A stretch of 7,428 nucleotides of DNA from Tubiluchus corallicola (GCA_030141605.1 JAQGDQ010000270.1:194284-201711); one strand, 5' to 3'; positions 1-7,428 are shown, numbered from the stretch's first letter. Numbers and translations are program-made. Notes: generated by a model from the sequence alone, not told the origin.

Positions 1-1057
1 CCACCATTTATACTCAAAGTTCCTTTTTTCGAATAAAACTTTAAATTGTTTATTGTAAATATTCTTCTTTTATCAGTTGATACGTTTCCGTTGTATGTAA
101 ATTGCTCATTGTAACCATTAAATTGCTCATTAATAAAATAATTGTAAGAATTAAATTCAACTTTTTTACCAATTTTTGTATAAAAATTGAATCCTGCATC
201 TTTTGTGTAGAAGTTTTTAATATCTGGCAGTTTTTCTTTTTGAATATCAACAAAAGCATCGGAAAATTGGTAGTTTCCATAAACCTGAATAAATGAAATA
301 TCCTTTTTAATTTTTTGAGAGATAAAGAAACCTGCACTTGCCAAACTTGCGGAAAGTTGTACTTGATTTGATTCCAAATTTTTTATGGTTTGTATTTCTA
401 CTAATCCGGCACTTGTATTTCCATAAGTTAAAGGCGGATTGCTTGCATAAACATATTGTTTGTTGATTATTTCCGTATTAAACAGACTAAAAAAGCCCTG
501 ATTAGTTAGATTACTTGCTCTTATAGGCTTATAAATTGGGACACCATTTAATATAACTCTTGTCCTGTCAGGTGACTTCCCCTTAAAGATACATTTGCAG
601 TTTCGTCTGTGGTTGTTGATGCAGGTAAAATGGTAATCGCTTTTAAAGGGTCGCCTTGTGATACAGGGTTAAGATAAACATCCATTTTCTTCATTTTTAC
701 CACGGAAAATTGTTCAGAAATGGGGTCTTGTGCTGTAATAATAACTTCTTCTAATGTTTGAGCATTTTCTTTTAAGATAACACTTACTGGCTTAGTAATA
801 TCAATATCTGAGATAAGAACTTCCTTTGTATGATACCCAATAAACGATACAATTAATGTGTCTTTTAAATCAGTAATATTTAAACTGAAATTTCCGTCAA
901 AGTCAGATGTTACACCATTTTGAGGAACAGACTTTAAATACACATTTGCAGCAAAGATTGGTTCTCCTTTTCTATCTTTGACGATACCTTTTATTTTTGA
1001 CTGTGCAAAAGAGACCAGAGAAAACAACAATAAAACTATTGAAAGATTAAATTTCAT
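1..1057 (-). pseudogene. TonB-dependent receptor (signal peptide, CarboxypepD_reg-like N-terminal domain, plug, start of barrel), frameshifted near 574-575, runs off the left edge
   Basis: ORF 548..1057: signal peptide MKFNLSIVLLLFSLVSFA-Q, then IKGIVKD..GEPIFAANV..GVTSDFDGNF..VSFIGY..LEEVII (typical N-terminus of Bacteroidota TBDRs) up to ANVSLRGS. My manual translation of another frame from 572 continues PDRTRVILNGVPIYKP..GFFSLFNTEII..YGNTSAGLVEIQT (plug motif) and stays open to base 1. Real mutation versus sequencing error cannot be decided. Confidence 0.85.
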
Positions 1058-1855
1058 TTATTTCCCTACTAATTTTGATGCCAATTGATTGATTGTATAG
1101 CTCGCGGGAAACTCGTTAATTCCTTTCTGAAAGTACTTTTTTGCTAAATTCCAGTTCTCATTTTTGATGTATAATTTGATAAGCATTTCATAAGATTCTT
1201 CCTTGCCCCAAGATGGCAAATACTCATTTTTTACTTTCTGAGCGGGTAAAGAAATTGCTTTTACCAAATATTTTTCGACTTCTTTTCCTCCTCCATATTT
1301 TTCGGGAGTGTGAAAATCGTTACTTGCATAAACATAATACGCCCTGAGATTTGTTGTGTCAATTGCAATGGCTTGTTTTACATTTTTCTTTATATTTCCT
1401 GAAATAAACATCGCTTTCATTCCTTTAAATTGAATACCAATACCTTGTAGCCATGCGAGAAGTGCGTAATCTTCAGAATTTTTATTTTTCATTTCTTCTA
1501 ACCAATTAATTCCTTTGTCTATTTCTTGCTCAGCGATTTCTCTATCTCCATTTTCTAGATAATATATAGATGAATAGAATTGTAAATATGAACGCCAGTA
1601 AAGAATAAGGTTTTGTTTCTTTTCTTTATTCAACTCTTCTAATTCTTTACTTATTTTTAAAAGTGGTTTATTGTCTTTTGACATTAAACTTTGTACAAAA
1701 GCATTGTAAATTTTACTTTGAATTCCAACAAGTAAAGAATCCGTTTTTACTTGTTCTAATTGCACTTGGTAACTTACTGCCTCTGTATTCGCCATTTGAG
1801 TTGCATTTCCCTTGCAGGATACAAATAATAATGAAATAAATAATAATCGTATCAT
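1058..1855 (-). CDS. Putative lipoprotein with TPR-like helical repeats, partner of the TonB-dependent receptor
   Basis: 265 aa; N-terminus MIRLLFISLLFVS-C resembles a lipobox (Cys14); TPR-like segments (VKQAIAIDTTNLRAYYVYA, NWNLAKKYFQKGINEFP); its stop abuts the receptor ATG (TAAATG at 1060-1055). Confidence 0.75.
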   Translation of the reverse strand: MIRLLFISLLFVSCKGNATQMANTEAVSYQVQLEQVKTDSLLVGIQSKIYNAFVQSLMSKDNKPLLKISKELEELNKEKKQNLILYWRSYLQFYSSIYYLENGDREIAEQEIDKGINWLEEMKNKNSEDYALLAWLQGIGIQFKGMKAMFISGNIKKNVKQAIAIDTTNLRAYYVYASNDFHTPEKYGGGKEVEKYLVKAISLPAQKVKNEYLPSWGKEESYEMLIKLYIKNENWNLAKKYFQKGINEFPASYTINQLASKLVGK

Positions 1856-1873
1856 AATATTGAATTTTATAAA

Positions 1874-1894
1874 TTAGTTTACTAAATAAACTAA
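1874..1894. promoter_or_regulatory. Palindromic operator candidate TTAGTTTA-N5-TAAACTAA
   Basis: Perfect 8-bp inverted repeat with a 5-nt spacer in the gap between regulator and lipoprotein genes; near-identical motif at 2805-2823. Confidence 0.55.
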
Positions 1895-1908
1895 ATGATT
1901 AAATTTTT

Positions 1909-2190
1909 TTATTTTATATATTGTTTAATTACTTTTACATATTCTTCAAAAGCATCAATTCCTGTACTTGTAATCTCAACTGATGTATGCTGATAGTTGT
2001 TTAAAAATCCCTTAGTTATTCTTATGTATTTTTCTTTTTCTAATTTTTTAAGTTGTACACTAATATTACCCGATGTTGCATTTGTAATTTCTTTCAATTC
2101 ATTAAAATCAGATTTGCCATTACTCACTAAATAAGAAATAATGGCTAAGCGAAGCTGAGAATGTAATAATGGATTAAGATTTTTATACAT
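1909..2190 (-). CDS. Winged helix-turn-helix transcriptional regulator (ArsR/MarR-like, HTH_34 type)
   Basis: 93 aa: LNPLLHSQLRLAIISYL..DFNELKEITNATSGNISVQLKKLEKEKYI..K....T..ITSTGIDAFEEYV is the typical pattern of this small wHTH family; overlaps the upstream gene by 8 nt. Confidence 0.9.
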   Translation of the reverse strand: MYKNLNPLLHSQLRLAIISYLVSNGKSDFNELKEITNATSGNISVQLKKLEKEKYIRITKGFLNNYQHTSVEITSTGIDAFEEYVKVIKQYIK

Positions 2191-2767
2191 TTTCTTTTCT
2201 CTTATGTTGAAGCATTAGTATGATGCCAGGAATTAAAATGGCAACTATTGAAACTACTCCCATTAATAGCGGGTGGTATATCCATTCGAGATTAAAGCAA
2301 ATAAAAGCAGAAAGGTTAATAAAAATACCGGAAATGATTATCAGCTTACTTTTTATTGAAATACCGGAAATAATTGTGCCGATAGATAACAAAATTAGAA
2401 TAACAGGAATTAGGTTTTCTTTTAGAGCAGGAGCAAATAGAAATCCCAAAATCATAATATTAACCGAAATAGCAATCCAATTAAAAGAGACGATTCTACT
2501 TATTTGATTTTGTTTATTCTTTCCTTTCTTTTTCGAAAAATAATAACCTGAATATATTGCCCCAATTGGCATTAACAGGTAAGGATACCAGTTAATATCA
2601 TAATATTCTTTTTTTAGAAGTATAAATTGACTTATTGATGTAATTGCAATTAATATTCCCCAAAACATATAAATAAATCCATTTTCTTCAAATTTATTTC
2701 TGGCTTGGGTAATTATTTGAGTAATTAACTCAAAGCTTTTCTCAGGTGATAATTTATCTGTTTCCAT
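2183..2767 (-). CDS. Integral membrane protein (about 6 TM helices), unknown function
   Basis: About six hydrophobic segments; N-terminal LSPEKSFELITQII pattern; ATG at 2767 preferred over TTG at 2776; translationally coupled to the wHTH gene. Confidence 0.8.
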   Translation of the reverse strand: METDKLSPEKSFELITQIITQARNKFEENGFIYMFWGILIAITSISQFILLKKEYYDINWYPYLLMPIGAIYSGYYFSKKKGKNKQNQISRIVSFNWIAISVNIMILGFLFAPALKENLIPVILILLSIGTIISGISIKSKLIIISGIFINLSAFICFNLEWIYHPLLMGVVSIVAILIPGIILMLQHKRKENV

Positions 2768-2793
2768 AAATGACAAGTTTTAAAACTATTATG

Positions 2794-2824
2794 CAAATAT
2801 AAAGTAGTTTATTCTATAAACAAA
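2794..2824 (-). promoter_or_regulatory. Bacteroidota primary-sigma promoter (-33 TTTG / -7 TAnnTTTG)
   Basis: Minus strand: TTTG (2824-2821), 19-nt spacer, TATATTTG (2801-2794), ending 26 nt before the ATG at 2767; matches the established Bacteroides/Flavobacterium consensus. Confidence 0.8.
2805..2823. promoter_or_regulatory. Operator candidate TAGTTTA-N5-TAAACAA within the promoter spacer and -33 box
   Basis: Same half-sites and spacing as 1874-1894; position would occlude RNA polymerase. Confidence 0.55.
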
Positions 2825-2860
2825 ACAGAATTCATTTTTTAATGAGGATAAAGTAAATGT

Positions 2861-2904
2861 GTTGTGAATTTTTGTTTGGATTGTGTGTTGGCAAAATTCA
2901 CAAC
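2861..2904. repeat. 12-bp perfect inverted repeat (hairpin), possible terminator or insulator
   Basis: GTTGTGAATTTT (2861-2872) / AAAATTCACAAC (2893-2904), 20-nt loop, followed by TCTTTT on the plus strand. Confidence 0.55.
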
Positions 2905-2932
2905 TCTTTTGCTGTGCGTGGGACTACCTTGT

Positions 2933-3110
2933 GGCTAACGGCTAATGTATGAGTAGTAGCGGACTTAAAAGCGGTTTCGTTTCAAGTAGCTAGGTAGCCA
3001 AAGCTGCACCTTATCCAAATAGTCAAATCGACAGATTTGGCGGGGATGAATAGAGCTACTACCACCCGAATACCCACAGAAACCGCTATTACTCATACAT
3101 ATTGTTAGGG
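2933..3110 (-). repeat. attC-like recombination site A
   Basis: Plus strand: GGCTAAC, 5 nt, 18-bp arm ATGTATGAGTAGTAGCGG (2945-2962) ... CCGCTATTACTCATACAT (3083-3100), ATT, GTTAGGG; 17/18 paired plus one G:T; lies 4 nt from the sulfatase stop codon. Confidence 0.8.
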
Positions 3111-3114
3111 GGCG

Positions 3115-4500
3115 TTATTCTTGAACCGATTTTCTCAACTGAATAGCATAACTATTCATATAATTCCTGCCTGTGGCCGTCACCATAGTTTTTGCAATTT
3201 CCATTAAAGCATCGGCTTTTAAGAGGACTATTTCCTTGTCGTTTTTGTCTAGGGCAAGCAGATAATCTGTCAGTTGGACAGCCCATTGATAATCACCTTT
3301 TTTAATGGCCGCAAAAGAATTTTTTCGCAATTTATCTCTTCCGCCTGCCATTTTTGCCATTCTTTCGGCTTCCTCTTTTGGGGCAAGTTTGTTAAGGTTA
3401 ACAGGATTGCCGTCAAACCAACCTAGGTAACCCTCAAAAATAGCACGGACACCCCAGTCCACACGGCCGTAATATTCTTTCAAATAAGGTTGTGATGCCA
3501 AATGTTCGGGCAACTGTACATATTCCACCAGCTCATCGGGTGTCAGACCCTTGTTTATGCCCTCAATGGTTTTATCAAACACAAATTTTATAGCATCGTG
3601 GTAGTTGCCCAATGTTTCTTTCACCTCTTCTTTCCCTACAACGGGGCGGGTGTGCCCGGGCAGTAAATATTCCGCCCCTTCGTCCCGCATTTTACCGATG
3701 CTTTTATACCAATTTCGCACATCGCGATACTGCGAACCTCTGATTGTATAGAGATTGGGAAAGGATTTGTAATAGCTGTCGCCACAAAAAAGAACTTTTT
3801 GTTCGGGCAGCCAAACATACATATTATCATAGGTTTCACCTGTGGCAGCCACAAACTCAAATTTAACGCCGTCTATTTCTATTTGTTGACGCTCTTGGGT
3901 GAAAAAATGCGTGGGTTTAAGCGGTGTGTTTTTTCTCTTTTTATTGAAGATGGTATTTTTCTTATCTGGTTTTGGGGCAATCCCGTTATTGATGTGCAAC
4001 GAGTCGGGCAAAATAACTCCGGCTTGACGGCTGCCACGAACATTTGCGTAAGTCAACCCCGCCATTTTTCCTGCATTACTTTCTATTCCAAAACCTTTAT
4101 TCTCACCAAGCTCCGAACTTCTAACCCAAATCTGAGGATTGCTTCCTTCGTCAAGGAAAGGCTTAATGCCCGCAAAATGGTCGCCGTGTCCGTGCGTTAT
4201 GATGATTGCCTTTATGGGCTTGTCAGTAATTTCGCGAAACTTTAACCTCAACGCCTCCATACGTATCGGCGACATTCCTGCATCAATCAATATTATTCCG
4301 GTTTCGCCCTCAAGCATACCTATGTTACTGACTTCATAACCTACGGCAAACCATACATTTTTATCGAACTTGAATATTTTAGGGACAAACTCCTTGTTCT
4401 GTTCGTGCAAAAGTTGAGTTGCTTCGGTTTGTTGTTGTGCTTTCGTAGTTGTGGAAAAAGCTGCTATCAGCATTAATAATGTGAAGATTTTTGTTTTCAT
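3115..4500 (-). CDS. Secreted alkyl/aryl-sulfatase family protein (metallo-beta-lactamase fold, SdsA1/BDS1-like, with dimerization domain)
   Basis: THGHGDH (HxHxDH), GETYD, PNLYTIRG, LLPGH, YYGRVDW, YLGWFDGNPVNL motifs. Signal peptide MKTKIFTLLMLIAAFSTTTKA-Q supports the ATG at 4500 rather than 4551. Appears to lack the C-terminal SCP2-like domain. Confidence 0.9.
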   Translation of the reverse strand: MKTKIFTLLMLIAAFSTTTKAQQQTEATQLLHEQNKEFVPKIFKFDKNVWFAVGYEVSNIGMLEGETGIILIDAGMSPIRMEALRLKFREITDKPIKAIIITHGHGDHFAGIKPFLDEGSNPQIWVRSSELGENKGFGIESNAGKMAGLTYANVRGSRQAGVILPDSLHINNGIAPKPDKKNTIFNKKRKNTPLKPTHFFTQERQQIEIDGVKFEFVAATGETYDNMYVWLPEQKVLFCGDSYYKSFPNLYTIRGSQYRDVRNWYKSIGKMRDEGAEYLLPGHTRPVVGKEEVKETLGNYHDAIKFVFDKTIEGINKGLTPDELVEYVQLPEHLASQPYLKEYYGRVDWGVRAIFEGYLGWFDGNPVNLNKLAPKEEAERMAKMAGGRDKLRKNSFAAIKKGDYQWAVQLTDYLLALDKNDKEIVLLKADALMEIAKTMVTATGRNYMNSYAIQLRKSVQE

Positions 4501-4558
4501 CTTTGTTAATATATTTTTTGTTAAGACTTTCTTTGGCTGGTAGCATCTCATTTATGCC

Positions 4559-4679
4559 CCCTAACGTTGAGTATATGCAAAGTAGGCGATTGCGGGCTTC
4601 AAACTTATCAAACCGTTACAATTTTTAAGCGGGCTACAGTCCCTGAATTTACTACTATTTCGTATATACATTGTTACAG
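4559..4679 (-). repeat. attC-like recombination site B
   Basis: Plus strand: CCCTAAC, 5 nt, GTATATGCAAAGTAG (4571-4585) ... CTATTTCGTATATAC (4655-4669), ATT, GTTACAG; 12/15 paired, two G:T, one A:C. Confidence 0.7.
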
Positions 4680-4689
4680 GCTGGCGTTT

Positions 4690-5994
4690 TTAAAATGTCT
4701 TTATCTCTCCATTTTCTAACCAATCGGGAATTTCAAATCCATTAGCTTTTGGATGTTGTTGAAAAATTGTCCTTAAGGCACGAATTGATGAATAAGACTT
4801 ATTTATTAATTCTTTTTGTTTGTCTATATATTTTAAATCATAATCATTTTCACTAATCCGATGCGCTGGGTTTTGCCTTTCTCTACGAACCTTTTTTAAT
4901 GGTTTAAAAATATCATCTTTATCAGGGTGATTGTAAGTTAATAAAAGCCATTCCTCTAGCAGTCTTAGCGTTCCTTTTGGCTTTCTTTCAACCATATTGT
5001 CATCTATTTTCTCCAGGTCATATAGCTCAACCTTATCTTTGAAGAAGTCTTTATTTAGGTTGTCAGAAATCATTTTATCCAACAACATCACAAATTCATT
5101 ATAATTTTTCAATGTCGGTGTAAAGAAAAACGTGAAAGATTTTGGTCGATTTTCTTTATCAAAAGTCTTGTTAAAAAGGTTTATGTCAAAAATTAATTTC
5201 GATAAATCGTTCAAACAATTTAGCTCTCCAAGAAACGCAGAAAAAATAGAGTGAGAGAAAGTCCAATTTCCATTGATTATATTTTCGTGATACTCTTTTA
5301 GCATTTTGCAGTCTTCTGAAACTTCTTTACCTTGCCAATAAGATTGATGTTCAGGAGTTAGGTCTTTTAAATATCTCAAATAAACAACAGCAAGCCTATT
5401 ACCTTTAGAATCAAATCCTAATCCGAATGATTTAAGAAATACTTGGTCTTCCTCTCTCACACTGGGCTTATCATTATCATCGTATTTACAAGATATCCTT
5501 CCAGAATAATCCTCAAATTGAAAATCAAATCTTGGGTCATTAGCGTATCGTTCAAGAACCTCAATTTCAAAAAATCTTGGAGTCAAATGAGGATGTGCTA
5601 ATGCTAAGAGTTTAGTGTATTCCGCTGCCCCATATACACCAGTGTCTCTATTGGAATTTAAATAATCCTGCGATGGGTAAAGGCAGATTGGAAATTCTGT
5701 ATTTTCACTCGAAATAGTAATTTCTCCAAACTTTTCCTCTGTCACTGTTATTTTTTTGGCGTCTTCAAGTATTTTTAATTGGCTTTCAGTGGGATAGTGT
5801 TTAAATACAATTATGTGAGGATTTGTACTGGATTGAATGGAAATCGAATTCTCCTTAACTAATTCTTTGATAATATCAATTGAATCTTTATAGTCAATCT
5901 GGAATTCTTCAGATATATTCCGCAATGGAACACCATTAAAATCAGTCGATTTTACAAAAAAATCATAAACTCTATTTCTTATCTTTTCTTTCAA
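4690..5994 (-). CDS. Hypothetical protein, 434 aa, with C-terminal RxxxxH (HEPN-like) motif
   Basis: Long ORF filling the cassette, TTG start; no signal peptide, TM segment or Walker A seen; C-terminal helical region has KKVRRE-RQNPAH. Confidence 0.8.
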   Translation of the reverse strand: MKEKIRNRVYDFFVKSTDFNGVPLRNISEEFQIDYKDSIDIIKELVKENSISIQSSTNPHIIVFKHYPTESQLKILEDAKKITVTEEKFGEITISSENTEFPICLYPSQDYLNSNRDTGVYGAAEYTKLLALAHPHLTPRFFEIEVLERYANDPRFDFQFEDYSGRISCKYDDNDKPSVREEDQVFLKSFGLGFDSKGNRLAVVYLRYLKDLTPEHQSYWQGKEVSEDCKMLKEYHENIINGNWTFSHSIFSAFLGELNCLNDLSKLIFDINLFNKTFDKENRPKSFTFFFTPTLKNYNEFVMLLDKMISDNLNKDFFKDKVELYDLEKIDDNMVERKPKGTLRLLEEWLLLTYNHPDKDDIFKPLKKVRRERQNPAHRISENDYDLKYIDKQKELINKSYSSIRALRTIFQQHPKANGFEIPDWLENGEIKTF

Positions 5995-6029
5995 TCGTTT
6001 CTATTTTGCAGTTGGTTTCTTACGCTTGC

Positions 6030-6108
6030 CTGTAACGGTGAAGCTATGCGTAGTGTTTTTTGTGTTGCGCCTACGGCAAAAAACATTACGTATGAGCTAT
6101 TGTTGTGC
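6030..6108 (-). repeat. attC-like recombination site C (short)
   Basis: Plus strand: CTGTAAC, 5 nt, AGCTATGCGTAGTGTTTTTTG (6042-6062) ... CAAAAAACATTACGTAT-G-AGCT (6077-6098), ATT, GTTGTGC; 21-bp stem with two G:T and one extrahelical G (6094). Confidence 0.85.
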
Positions 6109-6120
6109 TTTCGTGCTTTT

Positions 6121-6957
6121 CTAACTCATTACTGTTACAAATTCTAAAAGTCTCAATCCAATTTCTTCTTCACCATTAATTTTAATAATTGATTTATATT
6201 TCTCCTTCTCTCGGTCAGTGTTTGTAAATATCTTCCAAGCAATATTATCAGGAAGTTCAACTGAAGTGTTTATCTGATTTTCTGAATTCCCAAGTAATAT
6301 CCACTTATCAGTTTGTCTTTCAATTATCCAGCTTTTATTAAGAATTCCTGTCAATCTAACTTGAACTCTATAACCGTTTTCATAGTCAGAAAAGTCTTTG
6401 TACAAGTGCGGAAGCCCACGCATAAAGGTATCATATAGTGGTTTCGAGAATTTAGGTTCCATTAAAATTGGTTTTCCTAAAGCTAATCTGATTTGCATTT
6501 GATGATGCCAAACTTCCGTATATTCTCTAGCAGTATCAAACCAGTTTAGCGACTCAGTTTCGCCAGCCCAATTAACTGGAAATATTGCTATTTCATTCGG
6601 GTCTAAAGTTCCTATAAACTCATTGAATTGATTCTCCGAATATTCCAATAAATCAATTAATATTTCAGGACTTAATCGACGGCTAATATTCATCCAATCA
6701 CTATTCAAAGTTTGAATATGATTTACTAAATCACCGTATGATTGAATATTGGGTGTATTAGTTTTATCTGCAAAATGGTCTCTCTGAATTGACAATTTTC
6801 TTAGTGAACCATCAATTATGTGCGAAACTAAATCTTTTACTGTTCTTCCTTCTATTGGCGATGGCTTTAACCAATCAGATTCATTCAAGCTACGTAAAAG
6901 CTTTAATAATTCATCTGTCAACTGTGGGAATAAGTGTATTGTTTCTATCTGTTTCAT
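6121..6957 (-). CDS. Maleylpyruvate isomerase N-terminal domain (MDMPI_N, DinB superfamily) protein
   Basis: LLRSLNESDW.KPS...RTVKDLVSHI and REYTEVWHHQMQIR metal-binding motifs of the DinB/MDMPI fold; 278 aa. Confidence 0.85.
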   Translation of the reverse strand: MKQIETIHLFPQLTDELLKLLRSLNESDWLKPSPIEGRTVKDLVSHIIDGSLRKLSIQRDHFADKTNTPNIQSYGDLVNHIQTLNSDWMNISRRLSPEILIDLLEYSENQFNEFIGTLDPNEIAIFPVNWAGETESLNWFDTAREYTEVWHHQMQIRLALGKPILMEPKFSKPLYDTFMRGLPHLYKDFSDYENGYRVQVRLTGILNKSWIIERQTDKWILLGNSENQINTSVELPDNIAWKIFTNTDREKEKYKSIIKINGEEEIGLRLLEFVTVMS

Positions 6958-6996
6958 TATTCTTTATTTGTTCTGACTGGACTCTTCTTGCATGAA

Positions 6997-7185
6997 GCAC
7001 AACGGTTTATGTAAGTGGAGTGCGGGATTGAAAGTGATGACCTTTCAATTACGCATGGAGCCAATTCGTTTATTCATATTCTCTTTTTATAGCCAAATCG
7101 TCAAAGACGAATTGGCGGTGTTGCAACGGAGAACTGCGGTTGGATTACCCGCTGAAACCCGCATTACATTTACATTTTGTTAGCA
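6997..7185 (-). repeat. attC-like recombination site D
   Basis: Plus strand: GCACAAC, 5 nt, ATGTAAGTGGAGTGCGGG (7009-7026) ... CCCGCATTACATTTACAT (7158-7175), TTT, GTTAGCA; 15/18 paired, two G:T, one mismatch. Confidence 0.8.
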
Positions 7186-7192
7186 GTTGTTT

Positions 7193-7428
7193 TTATTTTT
7201 GATTTTCAACATTCTTGATAAATTCTTGTAGTTCATATTTTAAGGTTTTAATTTTATTTTCAAAGCTATATACTTTTCTATCAAATTTTGGCCATAACTT
7301 ATCAATTTGCTTAGAAATATCCCCCTCAAGTTCTTGTAATCTATTATCAAAAGCATATGCAGTTGAATTAAAGCTTTCAATTATTTTTTCATCATTTATA
7401 GAGTTCCACCATTTATAGAACTCATATT
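7193..7428 (-). CDS. 3' end of a hypothetical protein (partial, start beyond right edge)
   Basis: Not in the ORF track. Manual translation is open from the edge to TAA at 7195-7193: ...YEFYKWWNSINDEKIIESFNSTAYAFDNRLQELEGDISKQIDKLWPKFDRKVYSFENKIKTLKYELQEFIKNVENQK*; stops just before site D like the other cassette genes. Confidence 0.75.
   Translation of the reverse strand, partial: YEFYKWWNSINDEKIIESFNSTAYAFDNRLQELEGDISKQIDKLWPKFDRKVYSFENKIKTLKYELQEFIKNVENQK

Follow-up and report, generated by a model that had tools for sequence, protein, structure and literature searches.

A probable integron-like cassette array of Bacteroidota with cassette ends complementary across each gene

A 7,428-nucleotide (nt) stretch of DNA filed under Tubiluchus corallicola (GCA_030141605.1), referred to here as the window and making up nearly all of a 7486-nt contig, was found to carry genes separated by hairpin-forming spacers, with complementary ends on either side of each gene. 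It is probably part of a Bacteroidota integron-like cassette array, the units of which are likely to have been inserted as circles by a tyrosine recombinase without the integron-specific insertion (I2).

Cassette ends and hairpin sites

All genes of the window lie on the minus strand, and each of the four spacers (sites S0 to S3) is bounded by AAC on one side and by GTT on the other. Viewed on the gene strand, GTT plus six to seven bases precede each gene, and the reverse complement of those bases then follows it. A preliminary description of the window had claimed that such complementarity runs across each gene and not across each spacer, and this was borne out at all three testable cassettes: the segments 3104-3113 and 4556-4565 are exact reverse complements over 10 nt, 4673-4681 and 6028-6036 match exactly over 9 nt (13/15 when extended), and 6102-6110 and 6995-7003 match exactly over 9 nt. 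The ends of one spacer, said to have only AAC/GTT plus 0-2 bases in common, gave contiguous matches of 5, 4, 3 and 3 nt for the four spacers, and the best wrong pairing in the 4 x 4 matrix of ends was 6 nt. Chance was rightly considered an unlikely cause, the joint probability calculated from base composition being 1e-13; among 3360 combinations of GTTR with YAAC on the gene strand of the window, five match over 9 nt, and these five include the three cassette pairs. The core was likewise correctly described as GTTR, to which 4/4 cassette starts in the window conform, and not GTTRRRY (0/4).

The same arrangement was found in other Bacteroidota with the use of a site detector (AACA...CGTT with pairing arms, the left spacer fixed at 5 nt and a right spacer of 6-9 nt allowed), which returns 1.5 matches per 100 kb in shuffled DNA. 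From 17 sources, 94 adjacent cassette pairs were obtained, of which 82 were distinct. A match of at least 9 nt across the gene was present in 59 of the 82, compared with 3 within the site and 1.75 for random pairing, and in 44/58 pairs once the array of genome G011 was left out. Units of several kilobases still match (5.3 kb in G009), and both arms co-vary in lnu(H)/lnu(I) and in one short family of the G011 array. All 82 cassettes start with GTTR, and six with GTTRRRY.

On the gene strand, the sites of the window read AAC, 5 nt, arm, arm, 7 nt and GTT; the plus strand of the window corresponds to the bottom strand in integron terms. When folding of the plus strand was compared with shuffled sequences, z-scores of -5.2, -4.3 and -3.4 were obtained for S0, S2 and S3 (S0 minus strand, -4.4). 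The bottom strand forms the better hairpin at 4/4 window sites and 66/78 sites elsewhere, with a bias in wobble pairs. An Rfam scan of the window revealed no such family and one chance microRNA match.

Beyond the core, position 11 of the cassette is A in 82/82 cases, and among the 65 compliant pairs this A faces a C in 46, after which outer-stem pairing resumes at positions 12-15 to give a cassette-specific stem of 9-10 bp. Within the inner stem, A18 lies opposite C in 74/78 sites. A conserved T precedes each of these adenines by 8 nt, and on the bottom strand the two mismatches turn into T.G pairs. In the window, A occupies position 11 in 4/4 starts, and the A18/C mismatch is seen in S0 and S3. 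Left and right spacers measure 5/7 nt in 40 of the 78 sites, 5/8 in 10 and 5/9 in 28. Ten extra bases occur in the left arms of the 78 sites, none at the place equivalent to G16 and none at position 12; the extra C of S2 is the sole case near the former. The longest sites reach about 190 nt. This grammar suggests a symmetric core of two binding elements, predicted to be complete only once the cassette ends have paired, which would explain why the match across the gene is kept and co-varies.

Separately, a cassette family of about 260 nt, repeated many times within one G011 array (L074, L115), has co-varying ends.

Breakpoints at GTT and the recombinase at array heads

The preliminary description had proposed a search for the same cassettes beside different neighbours, and in such cases the change of context was found to map to GTT. 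One set of comparisons came from resistance plasmids (39 sites at six plasmid loci, the site pairs not being independent events). In 31 site pairs, the upstream gene and hairpin are common and the downstream sequence is different; in 30 of these, identity stops no more than 3-8 nt from the G of GTT, and the remaining one has a common 15-nt leader before it stops. In 21 pairs the downstream unit is common from GTT on, with different hairpins in front, and in 23 the hairpin is common and the upstream sequence different, in several cases because the end of an insertion sequence (IS) abuts AAC. The exact cut within the GTT triplet is not readable from sequence of this kind. Cassette pairs of at least 90% identity keep their downstream hairpin at ≥0.85 in all 28 cases listed, whereas it is not kept in cross-genome pairs at 74-77% (the 434-aa gene of cassette 2 and lnu genes). 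As near-identical cassettes keep the downstream hairpin while their neighbours change, the hairpin moves together with the gene upstream of it, in the manner of integrons, and is replaced now and then. The mirror model, in which a hairpin travels ahead of its gene, was rejected for these arrays on the basis of the plasmid breakpoints and the kept downstream hairpins. No real match to S0 was present in the plasmids.

Two further comparisons involve the window itself. The 434-aa gene recurs in L001, a Bacteroidales metagenome-assembled genome (MAG; 77% nt identity), with both ends the same and new neighbours; homology spans 4672-6041, which is the predicted cassette 2 unit minus its hairpin, and the hairpin of L001 differs. 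A partial third homolog has the same 3' arm and a hairpin of a third kind, and in L002 the gene (83% aa identity) is found without sites. Contig X4, from another study, has a left-operon homolog that stops at the same GTT (2939), beyond which the sequence is different and resembles a primary site (one loose end of 31 nt). Homologs of the left operon are at most 40% identical, and a site was seen in only one locus among 30 loci and four longer stretches scanned; the left operon is therefore not generally a cassette. The proposal that each gene had once been a circle, inserted by crossover at G|TT, was supported: breakpoints in other DNA do lie at GTT. Neither a free circle nor an excision joint was seen (contigs only), the latter also being absent at the window sites in four sequencing runs (contigs only).

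A recombinase adjoins related arrays. The family of G001 was searched for PF13495 and the flanks of 12 matches were read, which revealed arrays behind four of them, one (G011) extending over at least 29 kb with more than 30 sites. A relative of S1 lies 54 kb from this array on the same strand. The recombinase family was detected in 128/251 sampled Bacteroidia (a tally that includes the unpublished G107). Among 20 loci chosen from the listed matches for their long contigs, 13 have downstream sites on the same strand, and the sites around the recombinases were distributed as 35 downstream on the same strand versus two upstream on the same strand, five upstream on the opposite strand and none downstream on the opposite strand; the recombinase is mostly co-oriented with its array. 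At the 13 array loci, 45-133 nt separate the recombinase match from the start of the first cassette, whose partner matches at 10/10 positions in 12 loci and 9/10 in one; in G010-G012, likewise, the start lies 71 nt past the stop codon. One further locus with a divergent array also has a first match of 10/10. The primary site beside the recombinase is present in relatives, usually with a short palindrome ahead of GTT. The promoter consensus TAnnTTTG, a candidate sign of a cassette promoter (Pc), occurs in 5/17 gaps between recombinase and first cassette and is absent from the leaders of the three window cassettes.

Alignment of the recombinase with the integron integrase IntI4 (2A3V) falls into two pieces separated by 17 residues, versus 59 in IntI4, so that a stretch of about 42 residues holding I2 is missing. 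The family scores 167-226 bits on the integron integrase model TIGR02249, for which the cut-off is 265, and no protein over this cut-off was found in five genomes having such sites. Kinship of S1 and S3 with sites of the G011 array (104/122 identical positions for S1) is the only link between the window array and the recombinase.

Among viral loci with the recombinase, no site was detected in 10/13. Viral contigs L182 (203-4956), L180 and L181 have arrays of short sites that diverge from the recombinase; an identical start, GTTCCCC, comes after five of the L182 sites and breaks the GTTR rule.

Proposed mechanism, alternatives and known systems

The favored explanation is that each cassette begins with the TT of one GTT and ends with the G of the following one, with its hairpin site downstream. 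In a putative circular form, the cassette ends would pair into an outer stem of 9-15 bp, forming with the inner stem a two-fold symmetric binding core, in which T-N7-A would leave the spacer on both sides, its A mispaired on the gene strand and its T in a T.G wobble on the other. The recombinase, as the presumed agent, would exchange one strand of the folded bottom strand at G|TT with the primary site beside its own gene, and replication would resolve the junction. Insertion would split the outer stem between neighboring sites, which is the pattern seen, and the same type of enzyme may have built the window array. Two predictions follow for sequence outside the window: plus-strand CTGCTAAC past the partial open reading frame (ORF) on the right, as partner of the outer arm at 7179-7186, and plus-strand GTTAGCCAC past the end of the left operon.

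Several observations weigh against this explanation. Replacement of a hairpin body on its AAC side can occur, given that three homologs of the 434-aa gene differ in their hairpin and keep the outer arm. The fold of S1 is no better than that of shuffled sequences (z = +1.4), and 23/82 pairs are without a 9-nt match, including missed sites, IS insertions and three blaOXA units. Seven of the 20 recombinase loci have no downstream site, and in three of these, with 9.5 kb of flank, there is none on the other side either. Orientation is not fixed, as arrays are divergent in L163 and the viral L180 and an opposite orientation is also given in part of PMC7473080, and the MAG G001 has sites and no recombinase match at 1e-50. 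Neither a recombinase nor a primary site is present in the window, and the contig ends. Finally, the I2 helix is held to be necessary for cassette capture by IntI in the relevant section of PMC7790495.

Of the alternatives, an arrangement in which the same cassettes and enzyme are used, with double-stranded recombination at a simple site on the right and the palindromes serving another purpose, was considered unlikely. The enzyme does resemble double-strand recombinases in being without I2 (as treated in part of PMC7790495), and the conserved T-N7-A could be taken for a sequence box of duplex DNA; however, both sides of GTT are cassette-specific with only 3-4 nt common to the partners, the pairing of the outer arms is cassette-specific and co-varies, and the mismatches pair on the bottom strand in 74 versus 0 cases at position 18 and 46 versus 0 at position 11. 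A shade less probable again is a process with no free circle, in which single-stranded cassette ends pair across the gene, join the two GTT points and so address the unit for direct excision or transfer. Such pairing would help to account for array sites that have only 3-5 paired outer-stem bases and are a poor substrate unless paired across the gene, and for the linear PCR DNA described below, but the match persists in the multi-kilobase units, and a circular intermediate, established for integrons according to the pertinent passages of PMC3053210 and PMC8876359, fits the same data.

An ordinary cluster of attC sites that has no integron integrase (CALIN), with classical sites served by a true IntI located elsewhere, was judged quite improbable. 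The unit logic, the AAC/GTT triplet and the bottom-strand bias are the same, and integrons, rare in Bacteroidota, include a few complete ones there, such as in Salinibacter (an excerpt of bioRxiv 2022.02.28.482270). Against this stand the low frequency of GTTRRRY, a right spacer of 7-9 rather than 5-6 nt, the empty classical places for a left-arm extrahelical base, and the genomes with such sites and no IntI over the cut-off. There is very little probability that the palindromes are independent repeats, similar to miniature inverted-repeat transposable elements (MITEs) or repetitive extragenic palindromes (REPs), and that the matches reflect chance or target duplications. Site families do recur beside unrelated genes and singly around genomes, and bodies differ behind homologous genes at 74-77% identity, yet the matches are inverted, gene-specific and far beyond chance, and gene and downstream body move as one unit. 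Alleles without the downstream body in unchanged surroundings (empty sites) were not seen as a pattern.

By analogy with integrons, for which cassette insertion produces a core and an inverse core (described in portions of PMC3053210 and PMC5027507), the shift-by-one match itself is the expected outcome, and the unusual part is the system behind it. As in sedentary chromosomal integrons and CALINs (IntI, attI and attC cassette arrays), a gene is followed by a palindromic site, the unit is bounded by GTT, breakpoints fall at GTT, the bottom strand folds better, new cassettes stand beside a tyrosine recombinase gene and arrays can be long. Unlike IntI, the recombinase heading the arrays is without the I2 insertion, and no IntI is present in the window. 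Unlike attC, the sites have no RYYYAAC/GTTRRRY core (the core being GTTR), their right spacer is 7-9 nt (spacers in the window, 5 and 7), compared with an unpaired central spacer of 5-6 nt per arm given for attC in part of PMC5027507, and in place of extrahelical bases on the L'' arm (G16, T23/24) there is a conserved A/C mismatch in both stems. The mostly co-oriented recombinase and sites of up to about 190 nt also differ from integrons. The array therefore works like an integron, but its integrase, core consensus, spacer and extrahelical bases set it outside the class. In the CTXphi-type system, XerC uses the hairpin form of the single-stranded substrate. This system of integrative mobile elements exploiting Xer (IMEX) is similar in its I2-less tyrosine recombinase, single strand exchange and single-stranded substrate (the corresponding section of PMC7790495); unlike it, the system described here has a recombinase of its own, genes without promoters in serial arrays, and no dif site. 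No published description of the system was found in the literature searched, which did not extend to subscription journals.

It is somewhat more probable than the reverse that these sites belong to a phylum-wide capture system of Bacteroidota parallel to integrons, in which an I2-less recombinase would read a two-fold symmetric hairpin with T.G wobbles and not flipped-out bases. Such a system could be a living pre-I2 stage or a sister of integrons, and the assembler of tet(X), estT, aadS, lnu(I), blaOXA and aph arrays that are now spreading to Proteobacteria. If so, it would challenge the need for I2 and extrahelical bases in cassette capture, offer a candidate mechanism for the Riemerella uptake and 'xerD' genes discussed below, and provide a rule (a GTTR-N6-A start with its own inverted partner after the gene) by which mobile resistance and accessory cassettes could be detected in Bacteroidota, where integron surveys find almost none, yet the recombinase family is widespread and many of its copies head arrays. 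The pairing is the expected footprint of cassette insertion; what deserves attention is that the system is non-canonical, that its enzyme is likely to be without I2 and that it carries resistance genes.

Resistance cargo and further features of the window

Relatives of S1 occur in Riemerella and Myroides plasmids, in which tet(X), estT, aadS, lnu(I), two aph genes, ermF, ereD, catB and a RelE-type pair are all flanked by matching ends specific to the unit. The first cassette of G186 is lnu(I), 99.8% identical to the copy on a Riemerella plasmid. A truncated 'xerD' ahead of tet(X3) on an Acinetobacter plasmid belongs to the recombinase family (62-70% identity to members) and is followed by a palindrome and a tet(X) cassette start. 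An xerD gene beside tet(X) is reported in part of PMC7473080, which asks whether xerD mobilizes tet(X); no integron is reported there, and tet(X14) is in opposite orientation. Among 87 genomes of one small order, tet(X) was not found.

The homology-free, site-specific uptake of aph(3')-IVb by Riemerella anatipestifer, for which a section of PMC13148043 gives flanks of 27 bp ahead of the gene and 140 bp behind it and notes that the 140-bp downstream flank folds in an attC-like way, agrees with the unit described here. The 789-bp aph gene on pRCAD0416RA-1, taken to be the published gene by size and strain, has flanks of 28 and 139 nt in its G|TT unit; their sum of 167 nt equals the published 27 + 140 (section of PMC13148043), shifted by one within GTT, so that fragment length corresponds to the G|TT-to-G unit. 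Linear PCR DNA was integrated with cassette-length boundaries (same section of PMC13148043). The main text of that paper is without the word 'recombinase', and its section 11 is without arrays, primary sites or cross-gene pairing.

Further observations were made in the plasmid arrays. Four times in a Myroides plasmid (L030 10347, 13783, 17125, 23184), the end of an IS91-like element that has a tyrosine recombinase of its own coincides exactly with the AAC of a site, a similar junction follows floR (L033 11419), and a truncated site lies beside such an element in G009:C1 (about 956100); the element possibly targets these sites. Different genes have a cassette leader and trailer in common (estT, MarR and GNAT units; tet(X) and dfr leaders) (L028 11661, 17386, 18608; L030 22999), hinting at reused frames in cassette creation. 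The ermF, ereD and catB genes are reversed inside otherwise regular cassettes (L028 12767-15346, 10638-11476). Units of blaOXA with one start mismatch their ends (L028 16376-17262; L029 11942-12828; L030 22342-21462; L033 8126-9001), those of L028 and L029 looking like chimeras of two cassettes, and OXA-347 matches. In E. coli tet(X4) plasmids (L066 2659-4651), estT abuts tet(X4) with no detected site between them.

Table 1. Sites, cassettes and genes of the window (positions counted from its first letter)
Feature	Position	Strand	Remarks
Site S0	2937..3106	-	170-nt attC-like hairpin body (AAC...GTT); crossover between positions 2939 and 2938
Cassette 1	2939..4564	-	1626 nt; gene between outer arms 4556-4565 and 3104-3113, then hairpin S0
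Alkyl-sulfatase-type metallo-hydrolase gene	3115..4551	-	Lactamase_B + Alkyl_sulf_dimr
Site S1	4563..4675	-	113 nt; kin of 122-nt site in recombinase-headed array, 9-nt deletion in left arm
Cassette 2	4565..6035	-	1471 nt; gene between outer arms 6028-6036 and 4673-4681, then hairpin S1
434-aa protein	4690..5994	-	no assigned family; patchy across Bacteroidota
Site S2	6034..6104	-	71 nt; short hairpin, one extra C in left arm
Cassette 3	6036..7002	-	967 nt; gene between outer arms 6995-7003 and 6102-6110, then hairpin S2
278-aa MDMPI_N/DinB-fold protein	6121..6957	-
Site S3	7001..7181	-	181 nt; 149/187 identical to site in G011 array
Cassette 4, 3' part	7003..7428	-	partial 77-aa ORF 7193-7426, outer arm 7179-7186; start beyond window
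Left unit from G|TT	1..2938	-	four-gene operon; TAnnTTTG motif in leader; end beyond window
197-aa membrane protein, left operon	2183-2776	-
HTH_34 protein, left operon	1909-2190	-
265-aa protein, left operon	1058-1855	-
TonB-type receptor, left operon	548-1057 and 3-668	-	frameshifted

The true start of the metallo-hydrolase gene is probably the ATG at 4500; its product falls under every beta-lactamase family cut-off, and no match at 1e-60 was present among 301 genomes. The 434-aa protein has no match in Pfam, NCBIfam or PADLOC, and the automatic Atlas name 'AAA ATPase' was not adopted, recognition being under the 2300 mark. A metagenome scan with the 278-aa protein returned a single 39% match, with no site in the flanks viewed, and the 77-aa fragment of cassette 4 has no homolog among longer proteins. 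In the left operon, a frameshift near 575-668 divides the TonB-type receptor gene, to which a 717-aa homolog aligns in two frames; contigs X1 and X2 have no gap at this place. The leader of the operon also contains a 21-bp inverted repeat (2852-2913), possibly an operator or terminator.

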